Source of the DNA: an uncultured Aliarcobacter sp.
GTDB lineage: Bacteria > Campylobacterota > Campylobacteria > Campylobacterales > Arcobacteraceae
Direction of reading: 5' to 3'
Length of the DNA stretch: 64,000 bases
NCBI GenBank assembly: GCA_963677435.1
Contig: OY781945.1
Coordinates: forward strand, 224,001-288,000
The stretch's first letter is position 1, and every line of letters begins with the position of its first letter. Shown piece after piece: positions 31,463 to 61,174 of the stretch. A model generated the notes under the pieces. The model saw nothing but the letters and a program-made list of their open reading frames with translations. It made no database searches and was not told where the DNA came from. The position numbers and the translations under genes are program-made.

Positions 31463-32269
31463 TTAAATTGCGTATAAATTATCTAACACGATGTTTGGTT
31501 TTTCTCTCAAATACATAAGTTTAAAATCTCCATAGATTCTAAACTTATAGCTTTGATATAAATCAACTATCTCTTTTACATTTTTTGGAGCATATCCATA
31601 AATGCTTTTTAATCCACGATAATATAAAACCCCTCGTAAAAGCTTTTCAGCATCTAAAAAGGCTTCATTATCCATAATCCAAGGTGAGATTTTTATAAAT
31701 CTTTTGTTTACCACATAAGAGTGTAAAAATCCATATCCAGTAGAGAGTTTCAAAGAATTAGTAAAAACACAATCTGTTTTTAAATACTCTTCTCTATTTA
31801 AATTGAAAACTTTTTTATCAACTCTTTTTGCAACTTCTGAGTAGTGTTCACCACTTACTTGTTTTGCTGTTGAATTTGAAAAGTTAAAAGCAACAGATTC
31901 GCCTGAGTGCATAAATCTTAGAAAATCACTATAAGTTTTAAATCCTAATTCTTCCAACTGTTTACTTTTATCATTTTCAATTAAAACTAAAATATTTTCT
32001 TCAGGAAAATTTCTAAGCAACAAAGAGATTAATCTTTTTAAAACATCTTCATATTTACTTATCACATCAATCACATTTATATACAAATAGTTTTCAAAAA
32101 TATAAGCACTTAAAATGCCAACTATTTTTGAATCTTCATAGGCTGCAAAACAGTATTGAGGATAAACATGATATGTTTGTTTTAATAGTTCTAAATCAAA
32201 TAGAGGGTTTTCAATTAATAAATCCTCTAATGATTCTTCAAACCCATTTTTTAGATAGCCAATGAACAT
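31463..32269 (-). CDS. GNAT-like acetyltransferase-fold protein
   Basis: CFAAYEDSKIVG, tandem GNAT-like halves, LYQSYKF. Confidence 0.6.
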   Translation of the reverse strand: MFIGYLKNGFEESLEDLLIENPLFDLELLKQTYHVYPQYCFAAYEDSKIVGILSAYIFENYLYINVIDVISKYEDVLKRLISLLLRNFPEENILVLIENDKSKQLEELGFKTYSDFLRFMHSGESVAFNFSNSTAKQVSGEHYSEVAKRVDKKVFNLNREEYLKTDCVFTNSLKLSTGYGFLHSYVVNKRFIKISPWIMDNEAFLDAEKLLRGVLYYRGLKSIYGYAPKNVKEIVDLYQSYKFRIYGDFKLMYLREKPNIVLDNLYAI

Positions 32270-33363
32270 AGGTATAACTCTTTTAATTCATTTGTACTTA
32301 AAACTTTTTTTCTATTCGTTACAATTTCTCGAATTTGTGGAAGAATTTTTTGTACAATATCTATATCTGGATCAATTCCAACAGCTTTTAAATGATAAAT
32401 CAAAGTTGAACTTCCTGAGTGTTTTCCAATAGGAAAGGCTCTTTTTAAACCAACTTCATCAGGAGTAAAAGGCTCATATGCCTGATTTGATTTCATCATT
32501 CCATTTACATGAATCCCTGATTCATGTGAAAATATATTTCTACCAATAATTGGCAGATTTGTATCTATTCTTCTATTTGATGCGTTACTTACTGTTTTTA
32601 TAAGAGATTTTAAAGCTTTTGAATTAATATTAACTTCTTTTCCTAATAATCTCAAAGTCATTAATACCTGTTCAAAACAAGCATTTCCAGCTCTCTCACC
32701 AATACCAATAACTGTAGTATTAGAGCTGTATGCTCCTGCTTCATATCCTGCAATTGCATTTGCAGTAGCCATTCCAAAGTCATTGTGAGTGTGCATTTCT
32801 ATATCTAAAAGATTTGAAGAACTTAAATCTTTGATATTTTCATAAGTTTTATGAGGTGTTAAAATGCCAACAGTATCACAATATCTAAATCTATTTGCAC
32901 CAAGTTCATATCCTAATGTCATAATCTCTTTTAAAAAAGAGTTGTTCGCGCGACTTGAATCTTCTCCACCGATACAAACAAATAAATTTTCTTTTTTGGC
33001 TTGTAAAATTACCGTTTCTAGTTGTTTAAGTAATCTTGTTTTATCTCCACCAAATTTAATGTCAATCAAAATATCTGAAACAGGTATAGATAAGTCAACT
33101 GCTTTTAATCCACACTTTAAAGAGGCTTCTAAATCACTCATCGTAGCTCTATTCCAGCTCATTATTTGAATAGGTAAATTAAGAGCAAGAATCTCTTTTA
33201 AGTCATCTTGTTCTTTTTTACCCATTGCTGGAATTCCAACTTCTAGTTCATCTGCACCAGCTTCATATAAAAGCCTAGCAATTTGAAGTTTCTCTTTAGT
33301 GTTAAAAGCTACGTATGGTGTCTGTTCACCATCTCTTAAAGTTGTATCATTAATAATTGGCAT
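32251..33363 (-). CDS. nifV: Homocitrate synthase
   Basis: DTTLRDGEQ, EVGIPAMG, HTHNDFGMA, HESGIH, GKHSG. Confidence 0.95.
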   Translation of the reverse strand: MPIINDTTLRDGEQTPYVAFNTKEKLQIARLLYEAGADELEVGIPAMGKKEQDDLKEILALNLPIQIMSWNRATMSDLEASLKCGLKAVDLSIPVSDILIDIKFGGDKTRLLKQLETVILQAKKENLFVCIGGEDSSRANNSFLKEIMTLGYELGANRFRYCDTVGILTPHKTYENIKDLSSSNLLDIEMHTHNDFGMATANAIAGYEAGAYSSNTTVIGIGERAGNACFEQVLMTLRLLGKEVNINSKALKSLIKTVSNASNRRIDTNLPIIGRNIFSHESGIHVNGMMKSNQAYEPFTPDEVGLKRAFPIGKHSGSSTLIYHLKAVGIDPDIDIVQKILPQIREIVTNRKKVLSTNELKELYLCSLAI

Positions 33364-34543: not shown

Positions 34544-34840
34544 TTAAACTATTCTATCTGCCCAATAATTTGGTTTTCTACTGTTATGCATAACTACAAT
34601 TATGAATATTTCTTCATTTGATTCTTTGTATATTATGGAAAAAGGGAATTTATTTAGGACATATCTTTTAAAATCATATTGATAATTAGCCCATGCATTT
34701 GGAAAGTTTTGAATAGCTTCAAAACCATTTTCTAATTCATATAAAAACTCTTTTCCTAATCCTTCAAGTTGCTTTTCATACCAACTATATGAGCCTTTAA
34801 TATCTATCGCAATTTCAGGGTGAAAAGATAATGGTTTCAT
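34544..34840 (-). CDS. RelE/ParE-family toxin
   Basis: FHPE...WYE...LG.EF...KFPFSIIY...VMHNSRKPNYW. Confidence 0.9.
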   Translation of the reverse strand: MKPLSFHPEIAIDIKGSYSWYEKQLEGLGKEFLYELENGFEAIQNFPNAWANYQYDFKRYVLNKFPFSIIYKESNEEIFIIVVMHNSRKPNYWADRIV

Positions 34841-35428: not shown

Positions 35429-36877
35429 TTACCCTAACTCATGTTCAGTTTTTGAATCTTGCGAATAAAAATATTTTTGAACCGCTGCAAATACTGATTT
35501 TTCAATTGGTTGAAGGGCATAAGAATCGTCACAAATCAAGTTAATTGATTTTAATTCATCCATTGGGCATCCACCGATTTTTTCAGTTAATAATAAATCC
35601 ACATCTTTTAAAGTATTTTTAATATCTTCAATTGGATAAGAACCATCACAATCTTCAGGTCCTTTACAATATGGATTTTCAACTTTTCTGTGCATTACAA
35701 ATTTGATTGCTTTATCTCCAGCTTCGTAGATTAAGAACTCTTTAGCATTACCAAAGTGTAAGTTAATAGTTCCCTCACCAGCAGTTGTAACAGCTACAAG
35801 TTTAGTTTCACCTGTTGAACTCAATTGCTCTTTAGATGCTTGTGCAATTTTTACTTTTTCATTTGCAACTTCAAGAGCTGCTCTCCAGTTTTCAATAACT
35901 TGGTGTTTTTGTGCTCGTGCTGCAATATCATATTTTTTAGTTAAAGCATCCCAGTCCATTTTTACAAAAGTATCTTTTGTAAATTCATCCCCTCTATCTT
36001 CACCAATTAGTCCAACAGCATCAGCACGACACTGTCTACAGTGAGACATAAGTTTCATGTCCATTCCACAAGCTTCTTGAGCTGCCATTACTTCTTGGTC
36101 TGTTGCGCTTTCTTGCCCATTTAATCCATAATATGTACCAAATTCAGGTTTAGATAATAGAGGCATAATGTTATGTAAAAATACACCTAACTCTTTTAAT
36201 TTTTTAGCAACATTTGGTAACTCTTTGTCATTAACACCTGGAATTAAAACAGAGTTTGCTTTAACTAAAATTCCTCTTTCTGTTAACATCTTGATTCCCT
36301 CAAGTTGTCTTTGTAAAAGAATTTTTGCTGCTTCTTTTCCAAATACTTTTTTATGATTCCATAAAATCCATGGATATATTTTTGAACCAACTTCACCAGT
36401 TTCATCAACAGAGTTGATTGTAACTGTTACATGGTCAACATTATATTTTTGGATTTGGTCAATATAATCTGGTAACATAAGACCATTTGTAGATAAACAC
36501 ATTTTTAAATCTGGTGCTTTTTCATATAGCATTTTAAATGTTTTAAAAGTTTTTTCAGGGTTTGCTAATGCGTCACCAGGACCTGCGATTCCTACAACAG
36601 AAAGTTGTTGAATTTCTCCACCAACAAATAAAATCTTCTTAACAGCTTCTTCTGGTGATAATTTACCACTAGTTACACCTGGTCTACTCTCATTTGAACA
36701 ATCATATTTTCTATTACAGTAGTTACATTGAATATTACAAGCAGGTGCAACGGCAACATGTATTCTAGCGTAGTGCTGATGAGCACCTTCACTATAACAT
36801 GGGTGATTATTAATCTTTGCCATTACCTCTTCTTGGATTGATTCTTGAGAACTACTTGAAGTACACGAACAACTCAT
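35429..36877 (-). CDS. nifB: FeMo-cofactor biosynthesis radical SAM protein with NifX-like C-terminal domain
   Basis: HPC, CNIQCNYC, ESRPG, AGPGD, CRQCRADA, HFG; start reset to ATG 36877 after AAGGAG. Confidence 0.97.
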   Translation of the reverse strand: MSCSCTSSSSQESIQEEVMAKINNHPCYSEGAHQHYARIHVAVAPACNIQCNYCNRKYDCSNESRPGVTSGKLSPEEAVKKILFVGGEIQQLSVVGIAGPGDALANPEKTFKTFKMLYEKAPDLKMCLSTNGLMLPDYIDQIQKYNVDHVTVTINSVDETGEVGSKIYPWILWNHKKVFGKEAAKILLQRQLEGIKMLTERGILVKANSVLIPGVNDKELPNVAKKLKELGVFLHNIMPLLSKPEFGTYYGLNGQESATDQEVMAAQEACGMDMKLMSHCRQCRADAVGLIGEDRGDEFTKDTFVKMDWDALTKKYDIAARAQKHQVIENWRAALEVANEKVKIAQASKEQLSSTGETKLVAVTTAGEGTINLHFGNAKEFLIYEAGDKAIKFVMHRKVENPYCKGPEDCDGSYPIEDIKNTLKDVDLLLTEKIGGCPMDELKSINLICDDSYALQPIEKSVFAAVQKYFYSQDSKTEHELG

Positions 36878-36909
36878 AGATAACTCCTTATTTAAATTTA
36901 GAAATATAA

Positions 36910-36925
36910 TGCACATATTGTTCCA
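36910..36925 (-). promoter_or_regulatory. Sigma-54 promoter of nifB
   Basis: TGGAACAATATGTGCA. Confidence 0.85.
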
Positions 36926-36935
36926 CACGAATTTT

Positions 36936-36951
36936 AGGAATAGTAAATGCA
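36936..36951 (+). promoter_or_regulatory. Sigma-54 promoter of the 61-aa ORF
   Basis: AGGAATAGTAAATGCA. Confidence 0.7.
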
Positions 36952-36976
36952 AGTTTTTAGTAAAAAAGGATTCAAG

Positions 36977-37162
36977 ATGAGAATACAAGAAGAGATTAAA
37001 AAAGAGCTACTAAAAGAAGTGTATGGAAACATCGATAATATCTATGATTTTGTGAGTTTGAGATTTAGTCTTGACAAGCCATGTGATGAGGCAGTTATAA
37101 AAAAGTTGAATGAATTAAAAGATGTGATTTATAAAGTTTCAAGTTTGAGTGATTTAAATTAA
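36977..37162 (+). CDS. Small hypothetical protein (61 aa)
   Basis: AAGGA RBS, ATG 36977, own -24/-12 motif. Confidence 0.75.
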   Translation: MRIQEEIKKELLKEVYGNIDNIYDFVSLRFSLDKPCDEAVIKKLNELKDVIYKVSSLSDLN

Positions 37163-37235: not shown

Positions 37236-38474
37236 TTAATTCATATCTAATTCTATCATTTTCCCGTTTACAATTTCCGCAAATTCTCTACCAAATTCGA
37301 AACAATCTTCTAATTCTTTTTTTGTAGGTATTAATTTTATCTTCATAGGTTCAATCGGTGGAACTCTAAAATGTAAAGATTTCATTCTATCAAGAATCAT
37401 ATTAACAGCTTCTCCACTCCAACCATAAGAGCCAAAGGCCATTCCTGTTTTTCCTCTTTTTTCCAAGTACATCATACAAGAGAGCAAATCCCAAACTGGT
37501 TTTGGAGCATCTGCATTTATTGTTGGTGTTCCTATTAATATTCCATCGCTTTCTTCTAGAATATCAATCATGTTTTGTTCTTCAATTGAAGCTAAATCAT
37601 ATAAACTAGCTCTTATTGTTTTTATACTTTCTGCACCATCAAAAATAGCATCTGCCATATCTCTTGTATTTTTATAACTTGTTAGATAAAAAATAGAGAT
37701 AATTTTGTTGTTCTCTTTAATATTTTCAGGTCTAGCTAAACTCCATTTTCTATAAAGTTCAATATATTTATATGGTTTTTCCCTAATAATTGGACCATGT
37801 AAAGTAGCTATCATCTTTATATCTAGTTTATCATATAACTTTAGCGCACTTAAAACATAAGATTTAAAAGGTCTCATTATATGGTCATAGTAATACTTAA
37901 ATGAGTAAGAAAAATCTCCAACTAAATCATCAAAAAGTCTTTTATCATAATAGTGACTTCCAAAAACATCTCCACTAAATAAAAGAGAATCTTCAACAAC
38001 ATAAGAGCTCATTGTCTCTGGCCAATGTAAATATGGAGTTGTTAAAAATCTAATTGTTTTATCACCCAAAGTTAAACTTTTATTTGTCCAAACTGTTTCA
38101 AAATCAATGTTTTCATTGTTTGTAATTGCTTTTAACATTGGTGTTGCTTGGGGTGAGATTAAAACTTTTGCATTTGGAACTCTTTTGATTAACTCAGGAA
38201 TTGCTCCTGCATGATCTGGTTCTAAATGGTGACAAAGTACATACTTTATTTCATCATAAGAACAAAGTTGTTCTATTTTTGAAAAAAATTCTTTTTCAAA
38301 ACCCAACTTTACAGTATCAACAATAATAACACCTTCCGTTGTTTTTATTAAGTAGGCATTATATGAAGAACCATTTGCTGTTTTCATGATAATATCAAAA
38401 GTTCTAATATCAGGGTCAAAAGCACCTATAAAAAATATATTATTTGCTATTTCTATTGGTTTTTTATGATTCAT
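37236..38474 (-). CDS. fprA: Flavodiiron protein (O2/NO reductase)
   Basis: HLEPDH, HWPE, SGDVFG, HG, AFGSYGWSGEA. Confidence 0.93.
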   Translation of the reverse strand: MNHKKPIEIANNIFFIGAFDPDIRTFDIIMKTANGSSYNAYLIKTTEGVIIVDTVKLGFEKEFFSKIEQLCSYDEIKYVLCHHLEPDHAGAIPELIKRVPNAKVLISPQATPMLKAITNNENIDFETVWTNKSLTLGDKTIRFLTTPYLHWPETMSSYVVEDSLLFSGDVFGSHYYDKRLFDDLVGDFSYSFKYYYDHIMRPFKSYVLSALKLYDKLDIKMIATLHGPIIREKPYKYIELYRKWSLARPENIKENNKIISIFYLTSYKNTRDMADAIFDGAESIKTIRASLYDLASIEEQNMIDILEESDGILIGTPTINADAPKPVWDLLSCMMYLEKRGKTGMAFGSYGWSGEAVNMILDRMKSLHFRVPPIEPMKIKLIPTKKELEDCFEFGREFAEIVNGKMIELDMN

Positions 38475-40302: not shown

Positions 40303-41649
40303 ATGGTAAATAAAAAATTAATTCGAGAACTCTTGAGCGAAAGCGATTGCTCACATAATAAAACAAAAAAATCTTCATGTGATAAACCAAAACCAGGAGC
40401 AACAAGTGGTGGTTGTGCATTTGAGGGAGCACAAATTTCACTTTTTCCATTTGCAGATGTTATTCATTTAGTTCATTCACCTGCAACTTGTATAGGAGCA
40501 TCTTGGGAAACTAGACAAACTCTTACTTCCCATAAAGGTGAAAATAATACAGTTATGGGTTACACAACTGATGTTAATACAAATGACATCATTTTTGGTG
40601 GAGATAAAAAACTTGAAGTTTCAATTGATTATATAGTTGAACATAAGAATCCAAAAGGAATTTTTGTATATGAAACTTGTGTAACTGCCATGATTGGTGA
40701 TGACATGGACAATGTTTGTGGGAGAATGGAGAAGAAACACGGTATTCCAATTGTTGTTATTCACTCTCCTGGTTTCGTTGGTGGTAAAAATCTAGGCTCA
40801 AGACTTGGTGGAGAATCAGTTCTGCATCAACTAATAGGAACAAAAGAACCTGAAGTTATACACCCTTTTGGAATAAATCTAATTGGTGAATATAATGTTA
40901 CAGGTGATATGTGGCAATACACACCACTTTTAGAAAAAATTGGAATAAAAGTAATCTCAACACTAGCAGGTGATGGAAGAATTGAAAATATTCAAATGGC
41001 TCACACTGCAAAATTAAATGTAATTGTTTGTGCAAAATCATTAATTAGTTTAACTAGAAAAATGCAAGAGAAATATCAAATTCCTTATATTTCTATCTCA
41101 TTTTATGGGAAACGTGACACATCAAATGCAATAAGAAGTATTGTAAACGCCTTTGGTGATGAAGCACTAACAGCTCGAGCTGAAGCACTAATCGCAGAAG
41201 AAGAAGCAAAACTTGAAGAGATATTAATTCCTTATAGAAAAATATTAGAGGGTAAAAAAGCTATTTTAAATACAGGTGGAAATAAAACTTGGTCAATAGC
41301 TTCTGCTTTACAAGATATAGGAGTTGATGTTGTTGCAACTAGCGTTCAAAAAGCTACTTTAGAAGATAAAGAGATTTGTGCACAATATGTAAAAATCTTA
41401 ATAACAAATCCAGGAGTTGAACAAGCTCAACTAATAGATGAACATAAAATTGATATTTTACTTGCAGGTGGAAGAAGTTTATATACAGCTATTAAGAAAA
41501 AAGTAGCCTTTGTAGATGTAAACCAAGAGAAAAAAGTATCTTATGGAGCATATTCAGGACTTGTAAATCTTGCAATTGATGTTTGTAATGCTGTAAATAA
41601 TAAAGTATTTAAAGTAGTTGGTGCACCGGAACCTTGGAGTGTTGATTAA
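40303..41649 (+). CDS. nifE: FeMo-co scaffold subunit NifE
   Basis: GGCAFEGA, TCVTAMIGDD, GKNLG, TGGNKTWS, C-terminal PW. Confidence 0.95.
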   Translation: MVNKKLIRELLSESDCSHNKTKKSSCDKPKPGATSGGCAFEGAQISLFPFADVIHLVHSPATCIGASWETRQTLTSHKGENNTVMGYTTDVNTNDIIFGGDKKLEVSIDYIVEHKNPKGIFVYETCVTAMIGDDMDNVCGRMEKKHGIPIVVIHSPGFVGGKNLGSRLGGESVLHQLIGTKEPEVIHPFGINLIGEYNVTGDMWQYTPLLEKIGIKVISTLAGDGRIENIQMAHTAKLNVIVCAKSLISLTRKMQEKYQIPYISISFYGKRDTSNAIRSIVNAFGDEALTARAEALIAEEEAKLEEILIPYRKILEGKKAILNTGGNKTWSIASALQDIGVDVVATSVQKATLEDKEICAQYVKILITNPGVEQAQLIDEHKIDILLAGGRSLYTAIKKKVAFVDVNQEKKVSYGAYSGLVNLAIDVCNAVNNKVFKVVGAPEPWSVD

Positions 41650-46214: not shown

Positions 46215-47510
46215 ATGGAAGCAATATCAGCAAAACCTTTACAATTAAATCCAATAAAATTATCTCAACCAATGGGAGCAATGTTATGCTTCTTAGGTAT
46301 AAAAAACTGCATGCCTTTAATGCACGGAGCTCAAGGGTGTGCATCATTCTCAAAAGTATTTTTCACAAGACATTTTAATGACCCAATCGCAGTTCAAACA
46401 ACAGCAGTAAATGATATTACAGCTGTTATTGATGGTGGAGATTATGCCATTAGTGAAAGTATAAAAAACATCACTGCAAAAGTAAAACCAGATTTAGTAG
46501 GACTTTTTACAACTGGTCTTACTGAAACAAAAGGTGACGACATTAAGGGTGCGAGTAAACTTGTTGAAGATATTCAACAAATGGTTTATGTAAATACACC
46601 TGATTTTGAAGGCTCAATTGAGAGTGGATTTTCTAAATCTATTGAAGCAATAATCCAACAATTAGTTGCCTCATCAACAGAAATCGATACAAACAAAGCT
46701 TTAATCATTCCAAATGTAAATTTAAAACCAATAGAAGTGGAAAAAATCAAAGATACAATCTCTTTATTTGGTTATGAAGTTTTTTCACTTCCAGATTTAA
46801 GTGAATCACTTGATGGTCACTTAGGATTAAAACAAGGTGCACTAACAAGTGGGGGAATATGCGTTGAAGATATAAAAAAACTTGCAACTTCTTCACTTGT
46901 TTTTACAATTGGTAAAAGTGTTGAAAAATGTGGTGAAAAAATTCTTGAAAAGAATCCAAATATAAAACTATTTCACTTTGACTCTTTAGGTGGATTAGAA
47001 CAAAGTGATAAATTCTTCAAAATCTTATGCAAGGTAAAAAATATTTCTCAACCACATCCCTCAATTGTAAGATGGAGGAAAAGACACCAAGATGCACTTT
47101 TAGATACTCACTTTGTTATTGGAAGCTCAAATGTTGTAATTGCTCTTGAGCCTGACCAAGCAATAAGTGTAGCAAATACAATCATCGAAGCAGGTGCCCA
47201 TATTAAAGCTATAGTAACCACTCATAGAAATGATTTATTAGATGAAATTCCATGCGACAACCTTTTAATTGGGGATTTTGAAGATGTGGAATCATTTTTG
47301 CATGAGAGTGATTTAGTTATATCAAATTTTCATGCAGAAAGACTTGCTATTAAACACAAAAAAGCGTTGTTAGTTCGTGGTTATCCTGATTTTGAAAGCT
47401 TAGGAAACCAACTTAAAAATGACATTTTATATGAGGGAAGCTCTTATTTGCTTTTCGAATTAGCAAATTTGATAAATCATCATAAATTAGGAGTTGAAAA
47501 TGAGCATTAA
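46215..47510 (+). CDS. nifN: FeMo-co scaffold subunit NifN
   Basis: NPIKLSQPMGA, HGAQGC, RHF, TGLTETKGDD, DLSESLDGH. Confidence 0.95.
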   Translation: MEAISAKPLQLNPIKLSQPMGAMLCFLGIKNCMPLMHGAQGCASFSKVFFTRHFNDPIAVQTTAVNDITAVIDGGDYAISESIKNITAKVKPDLVGLFTTGLTETKGDDIKGASKLVEDIQQMVYVNTPDFEGSIESGFSKSIEAIIQQLVASSTEIDTNKALIIPNVNLKPIEVEKIKDTISLFGYEVFSLPDLSESLDGHLGLKQGALTSGGICVEDIKKLATSSLVFTIGKSVEKCGEKILEKNPNIKLFHFDSLGGLEQSDKFFKILCKVKNISQPHPSIVRWRKRHQDALLDTHFVIGSSNVVIALEPDQAISVANTIIEAGAHIKAIVTTHRNDLLDEIPCDNLLIGDFEDVESFLHESDLVISNFHAERLAIKHKKALLVRGYPDFESLGNQLKNDILYEGSSYLLFELANLINHHKLGVENEH

Positions 47511-47877
47511 TCCAACTTTACAACTGGTTCCATTTACAAGCGTAAAAATGTTAAATGAAACAATGAAATTAATAGGAATGCCAAGACTAAATGCACAAAT
47601 CATCATTACATTACCAAATATTGATGAATTTAATGAGCAAATAAGAAATAGCATTCACTGTTCAAAAAATGATATTGAGTGTTTTATCATAACATCAAGT
47701 TCAAAAGAAGAAATAAAAAATGTTCTAGATAAATTTGAGTTAAATGAAACAATGGTATCTAATGATTTTAAATCATTTGCAAAAATATTTAATCTAAAAG
47801 ACAATGAGAATAAATTAATAAAATCTTTAATAATGATAAATAAAGATTGTCAAATAATACACAAGGAAATTTTATAG
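47500..47877 (+). CDS. Degenerate thiol-peroxidase (Tpx)-fold protein
   Basis: Paralog of the next gene (IITSS, SNDFK.F, I.K...I..KEI); start reset to ATG 47500. Confidence 0.6.
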   Translation: MSINPTLQLVPFTSVKMLNETMKLIGMPRLNAQIIITLPNIDEFNEQIRNSIHCSKNDIECFIITSSSKEEIKNVLDKFELNETMVSNDFKSFAKIFNLKDNENKLIKSLIMINKDCQIIHKEIL

Positions 47878-48399
47878 ATGGAAGTTACATACAAAAATAA
47901 GGCTTATACTCTAGGTAAAAAAGAAAGAGTTGTAGAGGGTGAAGCACCAGCAGTTAGAGTAAAAATGGTTAATAATGAAGATAAAGTAATTGGTTTAATG
48001 GCTCCTGCTGTTCAAGTTATGATTACATTAAATGATATTAGTAAATACAACAGTAAAGTACATGAAGTAATAAATACAACAAAAAGAAAAGTTTATTCAT
48101 ATATTATTACTTCAAGTGATCAAGAACAAATCGAAGATGTTGCAGAGAAATTTGCTTTAGAAAAAGATTTTATTTCAAATGATTTCAAAGATTTTTCACT
48201 TAAATTTGGTGTAAATATTGATGATTCAATGCTTGCAAATTCAATCTTTGTTATCGACAAAGAGGGAGTTATAAAATATAAAGAGATTCCAAGAGATTTA
48301 GAAGAAGATTTTAAAGTAGATGATTTTTCTGTTACTTTAAATGAAGTTGTAAATTTTAAACCAACAGGTCACACTCATGAAAACTGGATGGGTGTTTGA
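47878..48399 (+). CDS. Tpx-like protein with no cysteine
   Basis: VTYK...TL, EAP, DFK.F..KFGV, IFVIDKEGVIKYKEI match the Tpx pattern; ends GHTHENWMGV. Confidence 0.7.
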   Translation: MEVTYKNKAYTLGKKERVVEGEAPAVRVKMVNNEDKVIGLMAPAVQVMITLNDISKYNSKVHEVINTTKRKVYSYIITSSDQEQIEDVAEKFALEKDFISNDFKDFSLKFGVNIDDSMLANSIFVIDKEGVIKYKEIPRDLEEDFKVDDFSVTLNEVVNFKPTGHTHENWMGV

Positions 48400-48400
48400 T

Positions 48401-48844
48401 ATGACAACTCTATTAAAAGAGTGGCTTATACAAAATGAATATCCAATTGATGATTTAAATGCAGTTGGAAAATATGGAAATTCACCACTTATGAAAGCAA
48501 GCAGAGAAGCTAATATCATAATAGTTGATGAATTATTATCTTTAAATGCAGATTTAAATATCAAAAATGTAGATGGAAATTCAGCACTTTGGAATGCCTG
48601 TTTTGGTAACTCTTATGAGTGTTTCGAAGCATTAGTTCGTGCGGGAATTGATATAGATTCACAAAATGTAAATGATGTGACTGCATTAATGTATTGTGCA
48701 AGTGCTGGAAAAGAAGATTTTGTTGAATTACTTTTAAAATATAATGCACGCACTGATTTTGAAAGCTTAGATGGATTTAAAGCAATCGATTTAGCTGTAA
48801 CTCCTAAAATTGTAAAACTACTAAAAAATGCAAATTTATCATGA
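48401..48844 (+). CDS. Ankyrin repeat protein
   Basis: GNSPLMKA, GNSALWNA, TALMYCA; start likely 48401. Confidence 0.9.
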   Translation: MTTLLKEWLIQNEYPIDDLNAVGKYGNSPLMKASREANIIIVDELLSLNADLNIKNVDGNSALWNACFGNSYECFEALVRAGIDIDSQNVNDVTALMYCASAGKEDFVELLLKYNARTDFESLDGFKAIDLAVTPKIVKLLKNANLS

Positions 48845-50081
48845 TCAAACTGATATAAATCAAAAGAAGTTTTTTAATCAAGCAAACTTTATAGATTACA
48901 GAACTCAACCAAGAGCTTATAAAAAATATCCTCATTTTTATCAAAGATTTAATCTTGATGATTATGAGGAGTTAAAATTTATAAAAAACTTTGGAAAAAT
49001 CACCGCAACAAAAGCCTATGGAAAAGAAAAAGTTGATTTAAGAGCAAATCCAAGTGCTGGAGGATTATATCCTTGTGAGATTTATATTCAAATTCGAGCT
49101 GTGAAAGGTTTTGTAAGTGGGATATATCATTATGAAGCACTTGAAAACACTCTTACATTAATCCATGAGTTAAGTAATGATGGAGTTGAATTTTATTTTA
49201 AAGAGAAAGTTCAAAGAAAATTTGTAATTTTAATCTCAAATGCCTATTTTAGAACTGTTTGGAAATATGAAAAACGAGCAATAAGATACTTATTACTTGA
49301 TACTGGTCACCAATTAGGTTCAATTGTTTCTGCTTTAGAATTAACAGATTTAGAATATGAGATTGATTTTAATTTTGATAAAAATAGTTTAAATGAAGAG
49401 TTTTCCTTTGATAATTATGAATCTTTTTATACAAGTATTACTGTGAAATCTGAAAAAACAATAGAAGCAAAAAAATTGCGTACACCAATAATAAATGTAA
49501 GCGCTTGTGATTATCAATTAAAAGAACCGTTTGTTGAAGAGTTTTATAAAAATTGTCAAAAAGATGAATTTGAAAAAATATCTAATGCTAATTTATTAAA
49601 AGATATTACAAATGAAAAACTTCAAAATGCAATAAATAAGAGAAGATCAATAAGAGCTTTTACAAATGAATCTATTTTCGAAGAGGATTTTTTATTTATT
49701 ACAAAAAATATTTTTGATTTTGCAAATAAATTTGGCATTGAAATATATTTTGTTAATAATAATATTCAAGGGATGAGTAAAGGTCTTTACAAAAATGTAA
49801 GCTTATTAAAACAAGGTGATTTCAAAAATAAAATGACAAATCTTGCCTTAAATCAAAAACTCTCAGGCCAAAGCTGCTTTTCACTAATTTTTACAAGTAA
49901 AGCTGGTCACAACTACTTCTATTGCTATATTCTTGCAGGTTTTATTGCTCATATTTTATATTTAAGAGCAACAACTTTGAACTTGAATTGTAGTGGAATT
50001 GGTGCTTATTTTGATGATATTTGTAAAGAGTTTTTAGAGACAAAAAACAATATTTTTTATCTTTTTGCCATAGGAAAATAG
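48828..50081 (+). CDS. SagB/ThcOx-type tandem nitroreductase
   Basis: RANPSAGGLYP, WKY..RA.RY...DTGH, RRSIR, GIGAYFDD. Confidence 0.88.
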   Translation: MQIYHDQTDINQKKFFNQANFIDYRTQPRAYKKYPHFYQRFNLDDYEELKFIKNFGKITATKAYGKEKVDLRANPSAGGLYPCEIYIQIRAVKGFVSGIYHYEALENTLTLIHELSNDGVEFYFKEKVQRKFVILISNAYFRTVWKYEKRAIRYLLLDTGHQLGSIVSALELTDLEYEIDFNFDKNSLNEEFSFDNYESFYTSITVKSEKTIEAKKLRTPIINVSACDYQLKEPFVEEFYKNCQKDEFEKISNANLLKDITNEKLQNAINKRRSIRAFTNESIFEEDFLFITKNIFDFANKFGIEIYFVNNNIQGMSKGLYKNVSLLKQGDFKNKMTNLALNQKLSGQSCFSLIFTSKAGHNYFYCYILAGFIAHILYLRATTLNLNCSGIGAYFDDICKEFLETKNNIFYLFAIGK

Positions 50082-50093
50082 AATTTAATTTTA

Positions 50094-50109
50094 TGGAACA
50101 CTAATTGCA
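50094..50109 (+). promoter_or_regulatory. Sigma-54 promoter of the nifX operon
   Basis: TGGAACACTAATTGCA. Confidence 0.88.
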
Positions 50110-50145: not shown

Positions 50146-50541
50146 ATGAAAAGTATAAAAATACAAACAAACGAACCAACAAGTGGAACTGTTAGAATTG
50201 CTTTTGCTACAAGTGATTTAGAAAATATTGACTCACACTTTGGAAGTGCAAAGCAATTTGCAGTTTATGAAGTAGGTAAAGAGACAACTACTGTTTGTGA
50301 AATCATAAAGATTGAAGATAAAGATACTGATAAAACTGTTGAATTATTAAAAGGTATAGACATTGTTTATTTTACAAATATTGGTGCAATTGCTGCTGCC
50401 AAGATTATAAACAATGGAATATTTCCTATTAAATACAAAGATGTAGTTTCAATTGAAGAAGAAATTAAAAAATTGACAACTATGTTAAATACAAATCCAC
50501 CTCCATTTATTAAAAAAATTATTGAAAAAAAGGCTGCCTAA
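50146..50541 (+). CDS. nifX: NifX
   Basis: IAFATSD..IDSHFG, IGAIAA, NPPPF. Confidence 0.85.
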   Translation: MKSIKIQTNEPTSGTVRIAFATSDLENIDSHFGSAKQFAVYEVGKETTTVCEIIKIEDKDTDKTVELLKGIDIVYFTNIGAIAAAKIINNGIFPIKYKDVVSIEEEIKKLTTMLNTNPPPFIKKIIEKKAA

Positions 50542-50542
50542 T

Positions 50543-50974
50543 ATGGATGCTAAAAAACTATTTATTGAAACTTTAGTAGGACAAGTAAGAGCTTTAGACC
50601 AATTTGGAACTTGGGCAAGTAAAAGCAATGAAGAACTATTACAAGAAAAATATATCAGAACAAAAGAAGATTTAAAAAATATTCCTATTATTGCGGATAT
50701 TGATGAAATGCAAATCAAAGATATAAGACTTATTTTCCAAGCAGTTGCACTTGCATTTGAAAAAATAACAGGTGTTATGGCTTCTGTTGTAATGGAAATG
50801 AGTCATGAAGGATTTGGAAGAGTTGTAGTTTTCGCAGGGAAAATTGTACTTTGTGAAAAATTCTTCAAAGATGCCCACAGATACTCTTTTAGAGAGTATT
50901 CAAAATTAGAAGAAGAGGGTGAAAAATTTCTTCTAAATGCACAAGAAACTTACGAAAAGTATAAAAACATTTAA
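50543..50974 (+). CDS. NifX-associated protein (DUF269-like)
   Basis: RALDQFGTW, MSHEGFGR, DAHRYSF; start reset to 50543. Confidence 0.85.
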   Translation: MDAKKLFIETLVGQVRALDQFGTWASKSNEELLQEKYIRTKEDLKNIPIIADIDEMQIKDIRLIFQAVALAFEKITGVMASVVMEMSHEGFGRVVVFAGKIVLCEKFFKDAHRYSFREYSKLEEEGEKFLLNAQETYEKYKNI

Positions 50975-50983
50975 GGATTAAAG

Positions 50984-51499
50984 ATGTCAAGTATTGGAAT
51001 ATTTTGTGGAACTGCTGGTGGAACTTCAATGGCTATTGCAAAAGCACTAGCAAAAGAGTTTGATGTTGATGAAATCATAAATATGGAAGAAGATTTTGAC
51101 AATGTTGATCAACTTTTGGAATATGATGTTTTATTTTTAGGAAGTTCAACTTGGGGACAAGGTGATGTTCATCACTCTTGGGTTGATCCAATTTTAGAAA
51201 TTGAATCTGATAATGTTGATTTTTCAGGAAAAACTGTTGCATTTTTTGGAGCAGGGGATTGTGTGAAACATGGAGAACATTTCTGTTCAGCACTAGGAAA
51301 ACTTTACAAAACATTCACAAAAGCTGGAGCAAATGCAGTTGGATTTGTTCCATTAGATGGATATAAATATGAGTTCTCTTTATCTCAAATGGATGACAAA
51401 CTTTGTGGTTTAGCAATTGATAACCACAATGAAAAAGCTAAGACTAAAGAGAGAATTAAAAACTGGATTGAAACATTAAAAGATGAAGTAGACTTATAA
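50984..51499 (+). CDS. Long-chain flavodoxin (NifF-like)
   Basis: GTAGGTS, STWGQG, FGAGD, GLAID. Confidence 0.9.
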   Translation: MSSIGIFCGTAGGTSMAIAKALAKEFDVDEIINMEEDFDNVDQLLEYDVLFLGSSTWGQGDVHHSWVDPILEIESDNVDFSGKTVAFFGAGDCVKHGEHFCSALGKLYKTFTKAGANAVGFVPLDGYKYEFSLSQMDDKLCGLAIDNHNEKAKTKERIKNWIETLKDEVDL

Positions 51500-51513
51500 A
51501 AAAAGGATATGAA

Positions 51514-51855
51514 ATGCAAAGTGTAAATGATTTTTATAAACTAAGAGATACAGAAGATTTTTTTAATTTTTTTGATCTTGAATATGATCAAAAGTTAATT
51601 AATGTAAAAAGATTTCATATGATGAAAGAGTATGGAAGTCTAATTAAAAAAGGTCTTGATTCTATTTCAGATGAAAATAAACTTTTAGAATTTCTAAAAT
51701 TCTCACTACTTAGAGTTTATGGTGACTATAAAACTGGTCACTCTCCAAGTGCTGCTGATGTTTGGAATATGTATGAAACTGGAAAGCTAGATGGTTGTTC
51801 ATCATGTGGAACAAGTACTACAGGAACTACTCAAGGAGGAAGTTGTGGGTGTTAA
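51514..51855 (+). CDS. nifW: Nitrogenase-stabilising protein NifW
   Basis: EDFFNFF..YD....VKRFH. Confidence 0.85.
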   Translation: MQSVNDFYKLRDTEDFFNFFDLEYDQKLINVKRFHMMKEYGSLIKKGLDSISDENKLLEFLKFSLLRVYGDYKTGHSPSAADVWNMYETGKLDGCSSCGTSTTGTTQGGSCGC

Positions 51856-52237
51856 TCATAAAGATATAGTTGATGCAGATACAATTTTACACGATAGTGT
51901 AACAGCATCAAGATCAGGTAGAGATGAAGATGAACCAAAATTTGGTATAGGTCAAAAAGTAAAACTTCTTGAAGATATAAAAAATGATGGAACTTATCCT
52001 CACGCTCCTGTGGGAACTATTATGGTTCAAGCAGGTGCCATTGGTTATATCAAATCAATTGGAGAGTTTTTACAAGTAATCAGAGTGTATGAAGTTCATT
52101 TTTTGGATTTAAATGCTCTTATTGAAGTAGTTGGTTGCCGGGAACACGAACTATTAGCAATGGAAGATTATAGAGATGAAGTTAAAGAAGAACTTGAATT
52201 CATGAGACAACATAGAGAAAAGTATTACTCAAAATAG
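51845..52237 (+). CDS. nifZ: NifZ
   Basis: PKF..GQKV, NDGTYP, G.FLQ, VGCREHEL; GTG 51845 after AGGAGG. Confidence 0.9.
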   Translation: MGVNHKDIVDADTILHDSVTASRSGRDEDEPKFGIGQKVKLLEDIKNDGTYPHAPVGTIMVQAGAIGYIKSIGEFLQVIRVYEVHFLDLNALIEVVGCREHELLAMEDYRDEVKEELEFMRQHREKYYSK

Positions 52238-52245
52238 TTTTCATT

Positions 52246-52289
52246 CAAGCCAAGTGAAAGAGTTTAAATGAACCTTTTCACTTGGCTTG
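52246..52289 (+). other. Strong intergenic hairpin
   Basis: CAAGCCAAGTGAAA / TTTCACTTGGCTTG, 14-bp perfect stem. Confidence 0.7.
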
Positions 52290-52341
52290 GTGATCTTATT
52301 TTAGTAAACAAGTCTATTAAAAAGTAGTAAGGAGGAAAAGT

Positions 52342-52686
52342 ATGGCAAAAGTGATTTTTATGCATTTTGACACGGTAACTGATGGGGTATATGATGCCAA
52401 AACTGGTGAACCAATTGTTAGGTTAGCAAAAGAGAAGAATGTACCAATTCCATTTGCAACTGATGGTGATTATTCTAAGTGTTTAATTTATGTTGAAAAC
52501 TTAAGTGAAGAAGAACCAACAAGTTATATGGAAGATGAGGAGTTAGATATTTTAGTTAAACTTGGAGCAATAACTGCAAGTGAAGCTGAACAATGTCAAC
52601 AATTTACAATCAGTCCAAAAGTAAGAATTGCGCCTATGATGTTAATCAAAGGTGATATTTTAGTAAAACCATTTAAATTAAAATAA
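52342..52686 (+). CDS. FeSII (Shethna)-like ferredoxin-fold protein lacking most cluster cysteines
   Basis: VPIPFATDGDYSKCL in place of IPF.C.DG.C..CL; RIAPM in place of RLACQ; long central helical insert. Confidence 0.7.
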   Translation: MAKVIFMHFDTVTDGVYDAKTGEPIVRLAKEKNVPIPFATDGDYSKCLIYVENLSEEEPTSYMEDEELDILVKLGAITASEAEQCQQFTISPKVRIAPMMLIKGDILVKPFKLK

Positions 52687-52696
52687 GGGAAATAAG

Positions 52697-52993
52697 ATGA
52701 CAACAAGAGTAGAAATCGTAAATGACTTTTTAGCAATTAATGTAAAACCAGGAAGTACAATTCAAGATGTTGTTGAAGCATCTGGTTCAGCTTTACCATT
52801 TGGTTGTAGAGATGGTGAATGTGGAACATGTTTAGTTTCAATTGAGCAAGGTATGGAATTTATCTCTGAAATCAATGAAAAAGAGAAAAAAGTTATTGCT
52901 GAAGCTGGAGCTGGGATGAATATAGAAAAAGCAAGATTATCTTGTCAAATGAAAATAGTTAAACCAAACGGTGTAATTAGAATTAAGTATTAA
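52697..52993 (+). CDS. [2Fe-2S] ferredoxin
   Basis: PFGCRDGECGTC...RLSCQ. Confidence 0.93.
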   Translation: MTTRVEIVNDFLAINVKPGSTIQDVVEASGSALPFGCRDGECGTCLVSIEQGMEFISEINEKEKKVIAEAGAGMNIEKARLSCQMKIVKPNGVIRIKY

Positions 52994-53046: not shown

Positions 53047-54294
53047 ATGGCACAAACACTTTCAATATCAACTGCTCAAAAGCAGAATTTAAATCTATCA
53101 TTAAAGTTGTGGCTTCCAATGCTACAAACATCTATCCAAGATTTAGAATCGTACTTGACAAATTTGTCATACGAAAATCCTTTTTTGGAAGTAACAAAAT
53201 CAAAAGACTTTTATAGTAACTTTACCTCAAATGGCACAAGTGGAGAGTTTATTGAATCCCTAGCTTTTTATTCAAAATCTTTGAATGATAAAATTAGTGA
53301 ACAAATTGAAAATGAAGCACTATTTCCAACACCAAACTCACAAAAAGTTGCACTTGAAATCTTGTGTGATATCGATGAAAATGGATATTTTGATGGAGAT
53401 ATAGAAAAAATAGCAAATACTTGTAATGTATATAAAGAGTATGTAGAATCAATTAGACAAAGATTTGCAAGATTAGAACCAAGTGGAATTGGAGCTAGAA
53501 ATCTTCAAGAGTCTTTCTTATTTCAATTAGATTCATTTGATAGAAAAATTGATGATGAATTATATAATTTCACAAAAAAAATCATAAAAGATATTGCACA
53601 TGTTGATAAATATGCAGGACATCATAGATTTAATGATGCAAAAGATATTATTAAATATTTTAATAATCCACCCGCAATTGATTATATCAATGATAATGTT
53701 CAAGTTGTTCCTGATTTTTTCATAGAGATCAATGAAGACATTGATATAAAAATAAATAATGCTTATTATCCAGATATAAAAGTAAAAAATCCATTTATTA
53801 CGAAAAATGAAAATATAAAAGAGAAACTAAAAGAAGCAAAAGATTTAGTAAATTTATTGAATTTACGAAAATCAACCCTTTATAAAATTGTTTTAATTAT
53901 TGTTGAAAAACAGATATCTTTTTTTGTTGGAGGAGAGTTAAAACCTTTTTCTATGCAAGAAATAGCAGCTGAATTAGGATTTGCAGAATCAACAATAAGT
54001 AGGGCAGTAGCAAACAAATATGTAGAATGTAACTTGGGAATTTTCCCACTTAAATTCTTTTTTTCAAATGCTGTTGATAAGGATTTATCTTCATCACAAA
54101 TTAAAAGTTATATAAAAAGTCTTGTTGATTATGAAGATAAAGAGACTCCTTTAACTGATGAATCAATATTAGAATTTATTGAAACTAAATTTGGTTTAAA
54201 AATGGTTAGAAGAACAATTACTAAATATAGAAAGATATTAGATATACCATCTTCTAAAGAGAGAAAAAAATTATATAAGGTTGAAAATTTATAA
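53047..54294 (+). CDS. rpoN: RNA polymerase sigma-54 factor
   Basis: ENPFLE, EPSGIGAR, ESTISRA, RpoN box RRTITKYR. Confidence 0.95.
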   Translation: MAQTLSISTAQKQNLNLSLKLWLPMLQTSIQDLESYLTNLSYENPFLEVTKSKDFYSNFTSNGTSGEFIESLAFYSKSLNDKISEQIENEALFPTPNSQKVALEILCDIDENGYFDGDIEKIANTCNVYKEYVESIRQRFARLEPSGIGARNLQESFLFQLDSFDRKIDDELYNFTKKIIKDIAHVDKYAGHHRFNDAKDIIKYFNNPPAIDYINDNVQVVPDFFIEINEDIDIKINNAYYPDIKVKNPFITKNENIKEKLKEAKDLVNLLNLRKSTLYKIVLIIVEKQISFFVGGELKPFSMQEIAAELGFAESTISRAVANKYVECNLGIFPLKFFFSNAVDKDLSSSQIKSYIKSLVDYEDKETPLTDESILEFIETKFGLKMVRRTITKYRKILDIPSSKERKKLYKVENL

Positions 54295-59774: not shown

Positions 59775-60767
<993 letters not shown>

Positions 60768-60814: not shown

Positions 60815-61174
60815 ATGTTTGTATGTGGATACCACTTTCCAGCGAGTGAAGGTAATAATGTAAGTTTTGAGAAAGTTATTGAAAAAGTAACTGAAGGTAT
60901 TGATGCTGCAGGGAAAACAGTAACTTTAACAAGTGAAACAAGAGAAGGTGTTAAATTAGAAACTTTAGAAGTTCCTGCTGATACTTTTTTACATACTGCA
61001 TTAGTTGATTATTATACAAATACTGAATGTGCAGAAAAAGATGGTTTCAAAATGGTTTATTATACAAATAAATACCAAATTTCTGAAATCTCAAAAAGCG
61101 TAGATGGTGATGTAACTAAAGCTGTTTGTAAAAAATTAGATGACATGAATCTATACAGAGTTAAAGTAGCGTAA
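60815..61174 (+). CDS. Hypothetical protein between nifH and nifD
   Basis: 119 aa; RBS-start AAGGAGAAAATTATG identical to that of nifD. Confidence 0.85.
   Translation: MFVCGYHFPASEGNNVSFEKVIEKVTEGIDAAGKTVTLTSETREGVKLETLEVPADTFLHTALVDYYTNTECAEKDGFKMVYYTNKYQISEISKSVDGDVTKAVCKKLDDMNLYRVKVA

Follow-up and report, generated by a model that had tools for sequence, protein, structure and literature searches.

Introduction

The closest described relative of the protein reported here is FeSII (Shethna protein II) of Azotobacter, whose [2Fe-2S] cluster, in structures from 2025, is reportedly the O2 sensor that releases the N-loop in conformational protection. The N-loop of FeSII makes the contacts with nitrogenase, helix hN1 to NifH (through R72, N73 and K76) and helix hN2 to NifD, and K70 acts as a latch between the N-loop and the cluster loop when the protein is reduced, as described in the available part of PMC11754109; the available part of PMC3045800 names K14/K15 as basic residues that contact nitrogenase. 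In Rhodobacter capsulatus, FdxD is a nif-regulated [2Fe-2S] ferredoxin that is implicated in O2 protection of the Mo-nitrogenase and is unable to reduce nitrogenase (available part of PMC10936413). Here, we examine a stretch of 64,000 nucleotides (nt) from an uncultured Aliarcobacter sp. (assembly GCA_963677435.1, contig OY781945.1, positions 224,001 to 288,000 of the forward strand), hereafter the window, whose Pfam and open reading frame (ORF) lists show that it carries nitrogen-fixation genes; the bacterium is AT-rich and Arcobacter/Aliarcobacter-like. Between nifZ and a gene for an FdC-like ferredoxin, in a slot that we call X, lies an ORF whose product of 114 amino acids (aa), here named X114, resembles FeSII and lacks most of its cluster ligands.

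We conclude that X114 is very probably a functional, cofactor-free member of the FeSII/FdxD branch of adrenodoxin-type ferredoxins, and that X exists as two ancient forms, one cluster-less and one with four cysteine ligands (4-Cys), of a single Campylobacterota nif-cluster gene in the slot nifZ - X - FdC-like ferredoxin. The best explanation of the observations as a whole is a cofactor-free FeSII-type protein that acts as a redox-insensitive binder, with nitrogenase as the likeliest partner, and we give this account a probability of roughly 0.42. Homology to FeSII and linkage to nif are its known part; the absence of the family's cofactor and contact-residue features is new, and the function is what we infer from sequence. 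Our search of the literature, with subscription journals and supplements outside it, found no mention of the X114 gene or of any cluster-less FeSII-type protein, and neither is mentioned in the available parts of PMC4674564, PMC12903952 and PMC12628686 or of PMC11754109, PMC10936413 and PMC3045800.

Results

X114 is an FeSII-type protein that has lost three cluster ligands

The features on which the comparison turns are as follows; the X114 and ferredoxin ORFs are as an earlier reading made from the DNA letters alone (the sequence-only reading) had described them, including the strong ribosome-binding site ahead of X114.

51791..52237 (+): nifZ, upstream neighbour of X114 (PF04319, E 8.2e-26)
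52329..52335 (+): Shine-Dalgarno-like AAGGAGG, by direct sequence reading; AGGAGG at 52330-52335 ends 6 nt before the X114 ATG
52342..52686 (+): X114 gene, ATG start, 114 aa, cluster-less FeSII-type protein with FeSII as best PDB relative
52447..52482 (+): loop that once bound the cluster (codons 36-47), more variable than any other part of X114, with A39/T40 at the position of FeSII C42, Y44 at that of C47 and C47 at that of C50 (alignments)
52507..52617 (+): N-loop of FeSII type (codons 56-92), which aligns to FeSII hN1/hN2 and comprises helices 65-74 and 79-87; the invariant EEPTSYMEDEELD motif and C85-Q86-Q87 lie in it
52633..52641 (+): P98-M99-M100 in place of the fourth-ligand motif C-Q-[MT] (alignments)
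52697..52993 (+): FdC-like [2Fe-2S] ferredoxin gene, 98 aa, intact, 10 nt 3' of X114 (PF00111, E 1.3e-12)

When X114 was compared with all PDB chains by phmmer, four sequences were returned at E <= 10, and the top three, the sole significant PDB matches, were FeSII of A. beijerinckii and A. vinelandii (E 3.5e-6, 2.1e-5 and 5.3e-5), with X114 residues 24-108 aligned to FeSII 26-112 and the insert included, as the sequence-only reading had recognized by eye. A family alignment (A2) was assembled from 23 close orthologues and 13 distant relatives, the latter from an exhaustive hidden Markov model (HMM) search of 1.84 billion representatives that gave 18 matches at E <= 1e-3. The A2 profile matched FeSII of both Azotobacter species over its full length (positions 1-112) at E 1.1e-23 to 2.2e-20, and all other solved proteins at E 6.4e-5 or worse (FdC, 9i2a, at 6.3e-3). 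X114 itself matches no Pfam family even at E 10 and no NCBIfam family, and does not reach the gathering score of PF00111 (Fer2). In the ESM Atlas, the cluster that ranks third in nearness to X114 is one named 'Ferredoxin-5' (score 0.89), which we treat as a lead only.

Three of the four [2Fe-2S] ligands of FeSII are gone from X114, in agreement with the sequence-only reading. In the phmmer alignment C42 of FeSII falls in a gap between A39 and T40, C47 corresponds to Y44 and C102 to P98; the sole ligand kept is C50, which corresponds to C47 of X114. The second cysteine of X114, C85, lies within EQCQ. Counted on the sequences, the third and fourth ligand positions are 51 residues apart in X114, 52 in FeSII and 38 in the neighbouring ferredoxin; therefore an insert of FeSII length is present in X114. 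As judged from these alignments, X114 lacks the capacity to hold a canonical [2Fe-2S] cluster and, with the ligand set lost, it could neither carry electrons nor sense O2 by means of a cluster.

Two forms occupy the same slot

Translations of the slot from 115 sequences comprise 29 with CxxGxCxxC and R[LIV]AC, 85 with neither and one truncated pseudogene, with no intermediates. Rows from the two genome collections used here overlap, and the distinct sequences number 70 for the cluster-less form and 18 for the close 4-Cys form. No sampled genome holds both. The close 4-Cys orthologues are 59-72% identical to X114, one of them even occurring in the window's own family (G177), and a distant set, such as the 127-aa Sulfuricurvum type, is 29-40% identical; they occupy the same nifZ-X-ferredoxin(-rpoN) position with one exception among the distant set (G130). 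A close 4-Cys orthologue matches both PF00111 and FeSII more strongly than X114 does, with E 1.4e-12 for FeSII and, for L127, E 2.7e-8 (34.1 bits, where the cut-off is 21) for PF00111. In one 4-Cys locus (L129, genome G187, positions 4030-4738), two tandem NifZ-like matches stand upstream of X.

The two forms differ in more than their ligands. E66 and M99 are each found in 70 of 70 distinct cluster-less sequences; position 66 is variable in the 4-Cys form, and position 99 is Gln in all 18 close 4-Cys sequences. K70 and K80 are lost in the cluster-less form, and position 96 is Ile or Val there and Leu in the 4-Cys form.

The sequence-only reading had suggested that O2 sensing might have moved to a thiol, and the distribution of C85 does not bear this out. 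C85 occurs in 84 of the 85 genome-derived cluster-less copies, with Ala in its place in the divergent L112, and in all 22 close 4-Cys rows (rows, not distinct sequences); it therefore predates cluster loss, and a thiol switch specific to the cluster-less form was rejected. A related possibility is that X114 holds a non-canonical metal or cluster, for example bridging two subunits through C85 and H8, and is still a redox sensor. H8 is found in 85 of 85 cluster-less copies, and the near-constancy of C85, which extends to all 120 of the database matches listed (see below), would fit such a site. On the other side stand the Ala of L112, a single Cys in the whole protein in 20 of 85 copies and Ser at the remaining canonical ligand in 20 of 85; moreover, since most close 4-Cys orthologues have both C85 and H8, these residues are not replacements for the lost ligands. 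We consider a metal site of this kind very unlikely.

X is confined to genomes with nifH

Relatives of X114 were collected in three ways. A word-indexed protein search found 190, of which 120 were listed; among the matches listed, lengths are 111-142 aa, identity to X114 is 68-98% and names are 'hypothetical protein' or 'ferredoxin', with sources in Arcobacter, Aliarcobacter, Halarcobacter, Marinarcus, Sulfurospirillum and unclassified Campylobacterales. The ligand motif is present in none of these 120 and CQQ in all of them, so that loss of the ligands, checked across orthologues, is common to the 85 genome-derived copies and to 120 of 120 among the matches listed. Among species-representative genomes, 94 stretches encode an X114 relative, and 80 were kept as loci for synteny counts; all 80 show the order nifZ - X - ferredoxin, and rpoN comes next in 74. 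Lastly, in an even sample of 401 Campylobacterota genomes, strong matches to X114 (E < 1e-25) occur in 35, all of them within the 51 nifH-positive genomes and none among the 350 nifH-negative ones. The reading frame is intact in 33 of these 35 genomes and in 21 of the 22 cluster-less ones.

X114 is present as a single copy in its own genome (G000), which contains no second FeSII-type gene. That genome measures 3.12 Mb, and nine other sampled genomes of the genus measure 1.9-2.4 Mb and have neither nifH nor X114; because of this difference, the nif region may have been acquired as an island in this lineage. A metagenome holds another cluster-less lineage (P0124), separate from the first, in which the loop is deleted. 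A search of longer proteins gave one match (P0163, 491 aa), in which residues 1-96 are X114-like and in frame with a membrane glycosyltransferase-like protein; it comes from a single 2.6-kb metagenome contig, was taken as a chimera or local rearrangement, and was rejected as an informative fusion.

The cluster-less form is under purifying selection

Ratios of non-synonymous to synonymous substitution (dN/dS) were calculated by the Nei-Gojobori method for 794 cluster-less pairs with 0.2 < dS < 1.5 and for 85 close 4-Cys pairs. Over the whole gene dN/dS is 0.127 for the cluster-less form and 0.096 for the close 4-Cys form; in the former cluster loop (codons 36-47) the values are 0.44 and 0.22, and outside it 0.10 and 0.11. 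The cluster-less form is therefore under purifying selection that is relaxed only in the former cluster loop.

Contigs from RNA libraries (four runs from two studies, of wastewater and activated sludge) cover nifZ-X114-ferredoxin at 95% identity or more; one of 747 nt spans 52165-52911. These give a weak hint that X114 is expressed in wastewater and activated-sludge communities, given that RNA libraries can contain DNA and that contigs give neither level nor ends.

These data bear on whether X114 is a decaying ferredoxin relic with no present function, as its lost ligands, its lack of any Pfam or NCBIfam match and the deletion or breakage of the slot in a few lineages might suggest. The low dN/dS outside the old loop, the intact frames, the strong ribosome-binding site and the 47 columns that are invariant across families of the phylum (see below) all argue against decay, and the RNA-library contigs add weak evidence in the same direction. 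A relic is, in our view, highly improbable, and the sequence-only reading's premise that the gene has not become a pseudogene stands.

The two forms have been exchanged as a cassette

On a tree built from the proteins encoded around X (NifX, DUF269, flavodoxin, NifW, NifZ and the ferredoxin; 86 of 93 rows kept, 785 columns), seven changes between the cluster-less and the 4-Cys state are required, at least four of which are forced by well-supported branches, and the approximately unbiased (AU) test rejects a single cluster-less clade on it (difference in log likelihood 446, p 5e-6). A tree of X itself, built without the trait's own columns, has two state changes, and uniting the cluster-less rows gives an equal or better tree (AU p 0.63). 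The discordance can be seen directly in locus L056, whose flanking proteins are 93.5-94.6% identical to those of L077 and L066 and whose X is merely 66-68% identical to theirs. At the DNA level identity is 84-95% in nifW and nifZ, 70-78% within X and 86-93% in the ferredoxin gene, the dip being confined to X.

The cluster-less and 4-Cys forms have thus been exchanged in a cassette-like manner; in the simplest scenario, the cluster-less form had a single origin and was then repeatedly exchanged with the 4-Cys form by recombination confined to X. Several independent losses of the cysteines, considered as the cause of the scattered distribution, are disfavoured because E66 and M99 are common to all 70 distinct cluster-less sequences and because the AU test allows a single clade on the gene tree.

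The N-loop is the most conserved part of X114

A structure of X114 predicted with AlphaFold2 (AF2) from alignment A2 reached a mean local confidence (pLDDT) of 87.2 and a global score (pTM) of 0.78; a prediction from the 23 close orthologues alone (pLDDT 47.7) was discarded. The insert forms two helices, 65-74 and 79-87, and this, together with its length, supports the earlier description of a remaining FeSII-type helical insert. The top Foldseek match of the model was FeSII chain 9cu1_N (TMq 0.79), that is, FeSII in the MoFeP:FeP:FeSII filament, on which VIA-align superposed 113 of 114 residues with Z 15.9 and a root-mean-square deviation of 2.2 A. Other FeSII states gave Z 10.1-11.4, generic adrenodoxin- and plant-type ferredoxins 8-10.4 and FdC (9i2a) 10.4. 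By both HMM and structure comparison, then, X114 is of FeSII type and not a generic ferredoxin (A2 profile E 1e-23 against 6.4e-5; Z 15.9 against 8-10.4).

Among 23 X114 orthologues, 47 columns are invariant, with a concentration in the N-loop (E58-L68, L71, V72, A82, C85-Q87, T89, S91 and P92) and at R95, M99 and M100 beyond it. What selection has preserved is the beta-grasp core and, more than anything else, the two-helix N-loop that is specific to FeSII. The average net charge of the N-loop is -8.4 in cluster-less and -4.9 in 4-Cys orthologues, and position 66 of X114, the invariant Glu of the cluster-less form, aligns with the latching residue K70 of FeSII. Loss of the cluster thus went together with a remodelled, more acidic N-loop and with bulky residues (Y44, P/S98, M99 and M100) at the cluster site.

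Nitrogenase is a candidate partner

Because the constrained surface of X114 is the FeSII-type N-loop, which in FeSII makes contacts, we infer a protein-binding role. X114 would act purely by protein binding through this loop; its likeliest partner would be a nitrogenase component, the Fe protein and/or the MoFe protein, and the outcome would be conformational protection or switch-off in a form that does not respond to redox. How X114 acts would depend on how much of it is present and on the partner's state, and its own redox state would play no part, the emphasis on amount being suggested by the position of the gene in a sigma-54 nif operon, a structure with which control by expression level is compatible. 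Nitrogenase as the partner is a tentative assignment, made by analogy with FeSII and held at somewhat less than even odds. The gene for the candidate partner lies downstream in the window:

59853..60767 (+): nifH, followed by a 119-aa ORF, nifD and nifK (ORF list and alignment)

Several observations weigh against this assignment. In the alignments, the FeSII contact residues R72, N73 and K76 correspond to L68, D69 and V72 of X114, and K14/K15 to G15/V16; of the FeSII dimer contacts (R61, R92 and D93-K53'), R92/D93 correspond to F88/T89 and K53 to a variable position. NifH of the window, counted on the alignment, keeps E69, N108 and E112, and since the contact residues of X114 have changed, the salt bridges of FeSII are impossible and any binding would have to occur via another mode. 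No NifH column separates 7 cluster-less from 4 close 4-Cys genomes, in what is a small sample. The structural match to the 'locked' state of FeSII stems from a cofactor-free prediction and may reflect the method's preference for compact forms. Finally, 16 of the 51 nifH-positive genomes have no strong X114 match: a clean deletion has removed X from G273, G182 and G344 retain remnants of just 25 aa, and G352 has a frameshift in the slot; X is therefore dispensable for nitrogen fixation as such. In a further genome, G296, the slot is broken together with nifH.

The sequence-only reading had envisaged a new nitrogenase protection or switch-off system. What stands of it is an FeSII-type, functional and nif-linked gene; sensing by a thiol or by the partner ferredoxin (see below) gains no support, and the published FeSII contact residues are not conserved.

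Compared with Azotobacter-type NifH chains in the PDB, NifH of the window carries a 12-residue insertion (residues 85-96; window 60105-60140 (+)), and an insertion of 9-12 residues is common to 19 of 20 other Campylobacterota NifH sequences examined. The 119-aa ORF between nifH and nifD (60815-61174 (+)) has no Pfam match at E 0.01; an extra gene at this place is unusual for nifHDK operons.

The nif locus and its bearing on other roles for X114

The remaining features of the window that concern the locus, from Pfam and ORF lists unless stated otherwise, are:

32254-33363 (-): nifV
35432-36988 (-): nifB
37239-38474 (-): flavodiiron-type gene with ODP/metallo-beta-lactamase and flavodoxin domains, within the nif region (Pfam)
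40303-41649 (+): nifE
46215-47510 (+): nifN
50094..50109 (+): sigma-54-type promoter-like site TGGAAC-N5-TTGCA ahead of nifX (regex scan)
50146..51855 (+): nifX-like gene (start 50146), DUF269 (50522), flavodoxin (50984) and nifW (51514), in one co-oriented block that continues through nifZ, X114 and the ferredoxin gene to rpoN (Pfam; synteny)
52246..52289 (+): hairpin in the nifZ-X114 interval, formed by a perfect inverted repeat of 14 bp around a 16-nt loop, with a U-rich tract after it (RNA fold -27.8 kcal/mol, z -6.7)
53047..54294 (+): rpoN (sigma-54), downstream of the ferredoxin gene (Pfam)

The neighbouring ferredoxin has all four ligands (C37, C42, C45 and C83), as the sequence-only reading had noted, and its best PDB match is 9i2a, FdC/Ferredoxin-4 of R. 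capsulatus (E 1e-12 over residues 11-88). In many relatives (L082-L106 and others), the FdC-like ferredoxin carries an extra Cys pair, C-x-G-T-C, before the fourth ligand, where the window copy reads A-G-A-G-M. The proximity of the two genes raises the possibility that X114 is a non-redox adaptor or regulator of this ferredoxin or of its partner, acting as heterodimer partner or docking competitor and tuning electron flow to O2 scavenging, with nitrogenase untouched. X and the ferredoxin gene are adjacent and co-oriented in all 80 loci; both proteins have adrenodoxin-type folds, FdC is among the top structural matches of X114, BLASTP relates X114 to the neighbouring ferredoxin at E 3e-4, and ferredoxins typically dock through a surface such as an acidic helix. 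The candidate partner would be the flavodiiron O2-reducing protein of the window: because FdC has been suggested as an electron donor to the nif-related flavoprotein FprA of R. capsulatus (available part of PMC10936413), the FdC-like ferredoxin may feed an O2-reducing route through the flavodiiron-type gene. However, the profile of X is far nearer to FeSII than to FdC, and the FdC-like gene follows the slot regardless of whether either form of X, a remnant or no gene at all stands there. Because it is kept unchanged where X is deleted or broken and beside both forms, the FdC-like gene is independent of X; the same observation counts against the earlier suggestion that sensing had moved to the partner ferredoxin. 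We consider the adaptor role unlikely.

Upstream, the sigma-54-type site at 50094 likely marks the start of a nifX-DUF269-fld-nifW-nifZ-X114-fdx unit. In the regex scan it was the sole such promoter found, and the nifZ-X114 interval contains no sigma-54-type site; a scan for sigma-70 sites gave 11 against 8.5 expected, not above shuffles. The hairpin in this interval could be an attenuator or terminator; its exact sequence pattern was present in loci of the window's own genome only, and no locus of another genome matched.

Membership of this unit is also what would be expected if X114 were a nitrogenase maturation or stability factor that works with NifW and NifZ, chaperoning immature MoFe or Fe protein, and no longer needs a cluster. 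X114 stands directly behind nifW-nifZ in a co-oriented block and is strictly nif-linked; in Azotobacter and Klebsiella it is nifM, a maturation factor of the Fe protein, that follows nifZ. Against this, X114 has no homology to any known maturation factor, its closest relatives are protective and not assembly proteins, and X is lost in several nifH-positive genomes. A maturation role seems to us distinctly unlikely, and binding of nitrogenase by a cofactor-free FeSII-type protein remains the account that we prefer.

Two further observations concern the flanks of the locus. Directly 5' of nifX, 47494-50081 (+) encodes two peroxiredoxin/redoxin-like ORFs, an ankyrin-repeat protein and a 417-aa nitroreductase-family protein, a set that is kept only in one Arcobacteraceae subclade (for example L001-L022) and is absent from other loci. 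Between nifV and nifB, a 98-aa ORF (34547-34840 (-)) resembles a ParE toxin weakly by Pfam (E 2.8e-4; 21.8 bits, slightly short of the cut-off of 23).

Discussion

X114 amounts to a natural control experiment: an FeSII-type protein without a cluster, selected only in nif clusters, whose close relative in the corresponding slot of sister genomes does bear one. A comparison of the two forms would reveal for which part of the FeSII mechanism the cluster is required, and cofactor-free protectors of this kind could suggest a route for engineered nitrogen fixation. Exchange of a single-gene cassette inside conserved nif clusters is in itself an unusual evolutionary pattern. Even if its partner is not nitrogenase, X114 is an undescribed conserved component of the nif operon of microaerophilic diazotrophs that are common in wastewater and sulfidic habitats.

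A more far-reaching version of our proposal is that the cluster-less form is a new kind of nitrogenase-binding regulator, derived from FeSII and with a permanently 'armed' N-loop, that parks or modulates nitrogenase with no redox cofactor; having arisen once, it would have travelled as a cassette of one gene and displaced the O2-sensing 4-Cys form across several Campylobacterota families. We regard this version as somewhat unlikely; if true, it would give those lineages a cluster-independent, iron-free logic of response to oxygen or energy state.

Among known systems, FeSII of A. vinelandii and A. beijerinckii (PDB 5ffi, 8rho, 9cu1 and 9iey) is the nearest to X114, with homology over the full length, an adrenodoxin-type beta-grasp, a two-helix N-loop, a similar size (122 against 114 aa) and a tie to nitrogen fixation. 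X114 differs from it in lacking the [2Fe-2S] ligand set, in its strongly acidic N-loop and in the position of its gene in a nif operon behind nifZ. FdxD (FdV, 'Ferredoxin-5') of R. capsulatus, which is set beside X114 by description only, carries a cluster and X114 does not. FdC (FdIV, 'Ferredoxin-4') of the same organism comes closest, among known proteins, to the product of the neighbouring gene; it matches X114 only weakly. A further comparison is with the 4-Cys orthologues in the same slot (such as L127, L130, L131, L128 and the Sulfuricurvum-type P0139), of which we found no study. The close ones have EEPT[ST]Y[MI]ED, CQQ and C-terminal KGD-L-KP motifs in common with X114, and, unlike X114, the 4-Cys orthologues keep CxxGxCxxC...RLAC, have K70 and K80 on the N-loop, vary at position 66 and carry Q99.

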